From Bacilli bacterium (lineage in GTDB: Bacteria; Bacillota_I; Bacilli_A; RF39; UBA660): DNA of 64,000 nt. Numbering within the stretch: the first letter of the stretch is position 1; the number at the start of each line of letters is the position of its first letter. Shown here one piece after another: positions 18,448 to 18,786 of this stretch. Below the pieces are notes generated by a model. It was not told where the DNA came from, did no database searches, and was given only the letters and a program-made list of their open reading frames with translations. Both the position numbers and the translations under genes were made by a program. Where the stretch lies: assembly GCA_017441845.1 (NCBI GenBank), contig JAFRVB010000008.1, positions 110,143-174,142 on the forward strand, in the 5' to 3' direction.

Positions 18448-18786
18448 TTATTCATCATCTTCTTTTTCAGATTTACTAGATAAAAATGTTACTTTCTCAG
18501 TAATTATTTCCATAACATTTTTCTTATGATCATCTTCTTCAATTAATCTAGATTGAATACGTCCCTTAATACCAACAATATCACCCTTTTTACAATATTC
18601 TTTAGTATTTAAAGCAACTTGGTCAAAAACTAAACAATCAATAAAATCAGTATCATAATTGCCATCTATATTTTTAAAACTACGTGGTATCGCTAAAGTT
18701 ATAGTTGAAACATTTACTCCATTTTCAGATTTATTAACTTTAACATCACGAGTTAATCTTCCTACTAAGACAATTTGATTTAAAAT
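18448..18786 (-). CDS. ssbB: Short single-stranded DNA-binding protein (SsbB-like), apparent non-canonical AUU start; absent from the ORF track
   Basis: My manual translation gives '(M)LNQIVLVGRLTRDVKV...TITLAIPRSFKN...DFIDCLVFDQVALNTKEYCKKGDIVGIKGRIQSRL...SSKSEKEDDE*', an OB-fold SSB. AAGGAGGTGAG precedes ATT ATT TTA. There is no in-frame ATG/GTG/TTG between the upstream TGA and the OB fold. Confidence 0.7.
   Translation of the reverse strand: MLNQIVLVGRLTRDVKVNKSENGVNVSTITLAIPRSFKNIDGNYDTDFIDCLVFDQVALNTKEYCKKGDIVGIKGRIQSRLIEEDDHKKNVMEIITEKVTFLSSKSEKEDDE

Follow-up and report, generated by a model that had tools for sequence, protein, structure and literature searches.

A tail-less SsbB-type SSB gene with a putative AUU start codon, kept as AUH across a clade of gut and rumen Bacilli

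The window, a stretch of 64,000 nucleotides from a member of the Bacilli, contains an SSB gene, here called ssbB, that escaped ORF calling. In our reading, it is a functional, monocistronic gene that is translated from an AUU start codon and encodes a tail-less accessory SSB, an SsbA paralogue of the SsbB type consisting of the OB fold only. We give this reading, which was reached by comparing sequences, a probability of roughly 0.85. The window belongs to a 67%-complete MAG (G000) with an assembly of 784 kb in 11 contigs and a G+C content of 27%. The features of the locus are listed in Table 1.

The ssbB frame opens after an in-frame TGA (18834-18832), reads as ...GGEI-I-LNQIVLVGRLTRD... and continues uninterrupted through 112 sense codons, from the ATT at 18786-18784 to the TAA stop at 18450-18448. 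Its product matches the Pfam SSB profile PF00436 over residues 2-102 with 82.2 bits (cut-off 26) and TIGR00621 with 80.7 bits (cut-off 54), both matches beginning at residue 1-2. The first in-frame ATG, GTG or TTG is the ATG of Met91 (NVMEII), and because no such codon occurs before codon 91, the gene is missing from the program-made ORF list. The original prediction, made from the letters of the window and this list, had proposed an unannotated 112-codon OB-fold SSB frame, missed by the ORF track for want of an ATG, GTG or TTG between the TGA and the OB fold, and the frame and its profile matches bear out both points. The sequence comparisons thereby confirm ssbB as a real SSB gene overlooked by ORF callers. 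Likewise, a collection of 15 billion proteins held no exact M-start ssbB product of the window genome or of three other species of its genus (G001, G003 and G004).

The C-terminus of the product, SEKEDDE, follows the OB fold without a linker and lacks the DD(I/L)PF tip, and the corresponding tails of its orthologues, which are short and charged, show no conservation. The assembly holds one further SSB match, on contig C1, where an rpsF-ssb-rpsR cluster encodes an ATG-started SsbA of 159 aa ending in DDELPF. Given this canonical SsbA in the same genome, ssbB represents an SsbB-type, tail-less paralogue: it is a second SSB beside rpsF-ssb-rpsR, and it has neither linker nor tip, as in the Bacillus type. 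The resemblance to SsbB that had been predicted from the size of about 112 aa and the tip-less end therefore holds for the architecture, and the possibility raised with it, that this is the only SSB of the genome, falls with the gene on contig C1. On the level of sequence scores, the product reaches 93.8 bits with the NCBIfam equivalog NF005242 (Bacillus 112-aa type), below the cut-off of 189, and SsbA models score it about equally (~90 bits). Its sequence matches in the PDB include SsbA, SsbB and SsbC of Staphylococcus aureus and SsbB (3vdy) and SsbA (6bhw) of Bacillus subtilis, with E values of 1e-21 to 1e-25.

Upstream of the coding sequence, AAGGAGGTGA is followed by G, ATT (18789-18787), the second ATT, TTA and AAT. 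From the end of GGAGG it is 4 nt to the first ATT and 7 nt to the second, the latter distance as given in the original prediction, which described a strong Shine-Dalgarno sequence (SD) followed by ATT ATT TTA. This second ATT aligns with the Met1 codon of the orthologues, all of which keep the SD. ssbB therefore presents the sequence features of the AUU class, namely no canonical start before the conserved N-terminus and an SD at working distance. In the window genome, the first ATT, one codon upstream, could serve as a start too. A peculiarity of G003, the species with ATA at this position (L006), is an in-frame ATG 8 codons (24 nt) upstream of the ATA, which lies inside a putative -10 box (TATAAGATG) and has no SD of its own; this ATG probably lies outside the transcript or goes unused, and gene callers might wrongly take it as the start and add 8 codons at the N-terminus.

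Seventy orthologous upstream regions align as TTTGca, a 17-18 nt spacer, TAtaAT, 7-9 nt and then GAAAGGAGG, with no conserved box beyond -35/-10 and SD; in the window, 6 nt separate TAAGAT from AAGGAGG. From these consensus boxes we infer a sigma-A-like promoter, TTTGAA-18-TAAGAT, and a very short leader of about the length of the SD region. The promoter is not among the calls of a generic scan, which in this AT-rich DNA did no better than on shuffles, and a consensus terminator scanner did not call the hairpin at the stop codon, which has fewer than three G-C pairs. With hairpins and U runs on both sides, ssbB is predicted to be monocistronic. In a genome of such low G+C content, a C/T-rich run (ACTTCC, ACCTC, CCCT and similar) that is complementary to the SD stands between the -10 box and the SD at 18801-18806 and in many orthologues. 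A hairpin of this kind that would sequester the SD (ACUUCC with GGAGGU) was considered for the window genome and rejected, its -5.8 kcal/mol (z = -0.61) being no better than shuffles; the candidate probably sits upstream of the transcription start.

Table 1. Features of the ssbB locus, in window coordinates
Feature	Position	Strand	Remarks
Intrinsic terminator hairpin of the upstream 135-aa gene	18915..18946	minus	14-bp stem, U run; -12.3 kcal/mol, z = -3.4 vs shuffles
-35-like hexamer TTTGAA	18831..18836	minus	Contains the in-frame TGA 18834-18832; aligns with the family-wide TTTGca block
-10-like hexamer TAAGAT	18807..18812	minus	18 nt after -35; aligns with the conserved TAtaAT block
Shine-Dalgarno AAGGAGGTGA	18791..18800	minus	Pairs over 10 nt with the consensus 16S 3' end
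Putative ATT start codon	18784..18786	minus	Aligned codon: ATG/GTG in orthologues, ATT/ATC/ATA throughout the genus
ssbB-type CDS	18448..18786	minus	112 codons + TAA; OB fold only; short charged tail ending FLSSKSEKEDDE
Terminator-like hairpin across the ssbB stop codon	18437..18468	minus	12-bp A/U-rich stem including U tract; -11.9 kcal/mol, z = -3.8

Orthologues recovered by six-frame searches of relatives align from residue 1, which allowed us to read the codon aligned with the second ATT in each of them. None of the five species of the genus has ATG there: the codon is ATT in the window genome and G004, ATC in G001 and G002, and ATA in G003. Thirteen metagenome contigs with products 70-85% identical to the window protein have ATT (2), ATC (7) or ATA (4), so that all 18 sequences of the clade (16 of them distinct), which were assembled independently, carry one of these three codons (ATH). 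By contrast, the 12 contigs from the same scan with at most 55% identity all have canonical starts, nine with ATG at the aligned codon and three with ATG or TTG one codon later. A separate scan of genome contigs favoured M-start copies, one of its search patterns being MLNQIVLV, and its count of 78 ATG in 80 was therefore not taken as a frequency. Close relatives are gut and rumen MAGs labelled as uncultured Bacilli, Tenericutes or Erysipelotrichaceae, including Mycoplasma sp. CAG:877, which suggests a placement among the RF39-type Bacilli with reduced genomes. A second ssbB-like copy in G001 (L033, G001:C45:26828-27160; 67% identity) has an ATG start and a weak SD; given the 8% contamination of that assembly, it may come from a second organism.

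Across the family, an ssbB-type gene is present in 181 of the 201 genomes sampled. Six-frame searches yielded 151 orthologues from about 145 genera, which start with ATG (~133), GTG (8), TTG (2) or ATH (8); the last group comprises the five species of the genus as well as G145 (ATA), G133 (ATT) and G014 (ATT), and a protein tree of the orthologues needs four gains or losses of ATH. SD matches are 9-13 nt long in the ATH copies, with a mean of 10.5 compared to 9.4 in the other copies (p = 0.035, the samples not being independent). Conservation of the ATT in orthologues, which the original prediction had named as a check, is thus found as ATH throughout the clade. A canonical start in orthologues, which it took as a sign of a sequencing error or mutation in the window, is seen in other genera, mostly as ATG, but never within the genus. 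As canonical starts are confined to other genera, a sequencing error is ruled out and the ATH codon represents a lineage-wide state.

Starts of this kind are rare. In Escherichia coli, AUA, AUC and AUU initiate at about 1-2% of the level of AUG, IF3 discriminates against AUH (Hecht et al., bioRxiv 10.1101/063800), and infC and pcnB are the only confirmed AUU genes (bioRxiv 10.1101/063800). Our literature search returned no paper joining AUU, start codon and ssbB. In an SD-anchored census of the whole 784-kb window assembly, limited to ORFs of at least 90 codons, 423 ORFs have canonical starts and ssbB is the sole true SD-led candidate for an ATH start; the one other ATH match is the frameshift site of prfB, which doubles as a positive control. 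Similarly, ssbB is the only ATH candidate among about 170 SD-led starts in ten 20-kb loci of relatives. A genome-wide relaxation of start-codon use was rejected on the basis of these counts, and the ATH start appears to be a gene-specific state in this lineage.

Two further genes of the window genome deserve mention in this context. The programmed +1 frameshift site of prfB (RF2), on contig C10 at ~29790-29812, reads GGAGGG..CTT TGA C and is followed by a 337-codon frame. infC, located by a Pfam search on contig C11 (L086:1461-1476), has an ATA at 1474-1476, 8 nt after the GGAGG of GGAGGTG, and only two in-frame ATGs nearby, one overlapping the SD and the other 7 codons past the ATA; the layout in G004 is the same. 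This infC, the classical case, probably starts at the ATA behind GGAGGTG.

To trace the history of the codon, we built a DNA tree of the 18 clade sequences (16 distinct) from an alignment that left the start codon out. This tree, more than two substitutions per site in length, requires at least three switches between ATA, ATC and ATT but not a single one to ATG, and it has ATA on its deepest branches. Probably, a single G-to-A change at the root of the clade turned the ancestral ATG into ATA, after which the third base drifted among A, C and T; ssbB would then have been translated from an AUH codon throughout the history of the clade.

If ssbB works as we propose, transcription from the sigma-A-like promoter would start just a few bases 5' of the SD, and a 10-nt SD/anti-SD duplex would hold the 30S subunit with the AUU in the P site. 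The initiator tRNA would then decode this near-cognate codon, 7 nt downstream and with a third-base mismatch, to give the N-terminus fMet-Leu-Asn-Gln. Extrapolating from the efficiency of AUH codons in E. coli and from their discrimination by IF3, the output is likely to be a low, IF3-sensitive dose. SsbA recruits its partner proteins through its C-terminal tail (PMC3384303); the tail-less SSB would bind ssDNA and would not be able to recruit these partners. In the cell, it may plausibly shield ssDNA during recombination or during DNA uptake.

Such a start need not have any regulatory meaning. In an AT-biased lineage of small population size, drift may simply have removed the ATG, with a strong SD being sufficient and the third base neutral, an explanation to which we give somewhat less than an even chance. 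Three changes among A, C and T over more than two substitutions per site are close to the neutral expectation, and the absence of G among them is not significant (P ~0.3 under equal rates); yet a mildly advantageous ATG, a single transition away from ATA, should have been re-fixed somewhere in the 16 distinct sequences of the clade. The G+C content of 27% and the three further gains of ATH in other genera are consistent with drift as well, whereas the near absence of other ATH starts from the window genome is not what it would lead one to expect.

A more tentative idea, which we consider rather unlikely, is that selection has kept the start as AUH and never AUG as a translational throttle. It would supply a low, IF3-gated amount of a partner-blind SSB, which would rise only as the ratio of IF3 to ribosomes falls. 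The one-step reversion to ATG has not been fixed over the length of the clade tree, but as the missing G falls short of significance, the tree does not demonstrate selection for a weak start. If true, the throttle would make the protection of ssDNA depend on the translational state of a cell whose lineage has lost DprA.

The location of ssbB next to pilin-like genes had suggested a connection to DNA uptake in the original prediction, and synteny, assessed by tblastn of the window proteins against the ten 20-kb loci, does not support this suggestion. The conserved order is the suf operon (with sufB last), ssbB and GNAT/pdp, and sufB directly precedes ssbB in seven of the ten loci, four of them from other genera. 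Only in the window genome and G004 (L074) do two pilin-like pairs, each of a 135-141 aa and a 620-664 aa prepilin-like protein (18931-23691), stand between sufB and ssbB, and a 426-aa gene (17124-18404) between ssbB and tdk; the pilin pairs and the 426-aa gene are insertions on both sides of ssbB in an otherwise conserved sufB-ssbB-tdk/GNAT/pdp block. In G001 (L075:10003-10338) and G002 (L077:10001-10342), ssbB is inverted together with its promoter, the orientation of tdk and sufB being unchanged. Since the adjacency is limited to this species and its nearest relative, it is best read as a recent insertion and not as functional linkage, and a conserved ssbB-pilin linkage was rejected.

This bears on the possibility that ssbB is a competence-specific SsbB that forms a DNA-uptake module with the adjacent type IV pilin-like array. 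We consider such a module improbable, although the tail-less architecture matches that of the 113-aa B. subtilis SsbB (PMC3384303) and ComEC is found in all four genus mates and in 23 of the 25 relatives altogether (in the 67%-complete window assembly itself, it was not found), and a full-length PilB/ComGA-type ATPase in all relatives examined. The pilin genes, however, adjoin ssbB in two genomes only and are separated from it by the terminator at 18915..18946; the other loci with sufB in view have ssbB directly after it and, where seen, GNAT/pdp opposite, and the inversion in G001 and G002 took place between unchanged flanks. Moreover, DprA (PF02481), with which SsbB-coated DNA interacts in known systems, is absent from all family and order genomes sampled (G001-G015, G025), while four more distant members of the class and the control genomes have it. 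The family-wide promoter is an ordinary sigma-A-like one without an extra conserved box, and the NF005242 score falls short of its cut-off. A literature search on RF39 with competence or ComEC yielded nothing relevant. ssbB may have a role in DNA uptake, but it would be by a route other than the classical SsbB-DprA pathway.

Finally, that ssbB is a pseudogene through loss of its start codon, or the ATT an error of sequencing or assembly, might be suggested by the lack of a canonical start in a 67%-complete MAG, but this is most improbable and was rejected: the 18 independently assembled sequences all have ATH and intact open frames of 109-115 codons, SD and promoter are conserved, and Nei-Gojobori dN/dS values of 0.06-0.22 (five species sequences, nine of the ten pairs computable and the tenth saturated; dS 0.5 to >2) indicate purifying selection, which together with the open frames excludes both.

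A functional ssbB with an AUH start has consequences for annotation and beyond. Gene callers miss ssbB genus-wide, and catalogues of these gut and rumen Bacilli accordingly under-report a gene that most genomes of the family possess. Natural AUU-class starts have rarely been confirmed, and here one appears to be held across a clade in all three AUH variants; the ATT/ATC/ATA set offers a natural allelic series for the study of near-cognate start use and IF3 gating in low-GC Firmicutes. Furthermore, a tail-less SSB is kept beside the suf operon in reduced genomes (~1 Mb) that have ComEC and a pilus ATPase and lack DprA, and its retention there raises the question of roles of SsbB-type proteins outside the classical competence pathway.

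Among the closest known systems is B. subtilis SsbB (YwpH, PDB 3VDY), which has a similar length of about 113 aa, consists of the OB fold only, lacks the acidic DDD(I/L)PF tail (PMC3384303) and is a second SSB beside the SsbA of rpsF-ssbA-rpsR; it matches the ssbB product with E = 1.7e-23. As the similarity to B. subtilis SsbA (6bhw, 1e-21) is about equal, ssbB is of the SsbB type by architecture and not an established orthologue. B. subtilis SsbB is induced by ComK and acts with DprA, RecA and CoiA, whereas ssbB has no recognisable competence box, its family lacks DprA as far as sampled and its start codon is AUH. The SsbB of Streptococcus pneumoniae is also an accessory SSB paralogue, which protects internalised ssDNA (PMC3128108), but it has 131 aa and keeps the acidic tail. 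It depends on ComX and, as cited in PMC3384303, is about 20-fold more abundant than SsbA, the reverse of what one would expect from a weak start. SsbB and SsbC of S. aureus (PDB 5yyu, 7d8j), accessory SSBs of a low-GC Firmicute, are the best sequence matches in the PDB (E 1e-25), a comparison of the OB-fold core only, as the matched chains comprise 112-118 residues. With regard to the start codon, the counterparts are infC and pcnB of E. coli, which share with ssbB a conserved near-cognate start of the AUU class preceded by an SD and, if the mechanism proposed here applies, IF3-limited initiation (bioRxiv 10.1101/063800). Unlike ssbB, they serve other functions, and a built-in mechanistic feedback belongs to infC only. 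ssbB is a well-supported addition to two known kinds, the genes with AUU-class starts and the SsbB-type SSBs.
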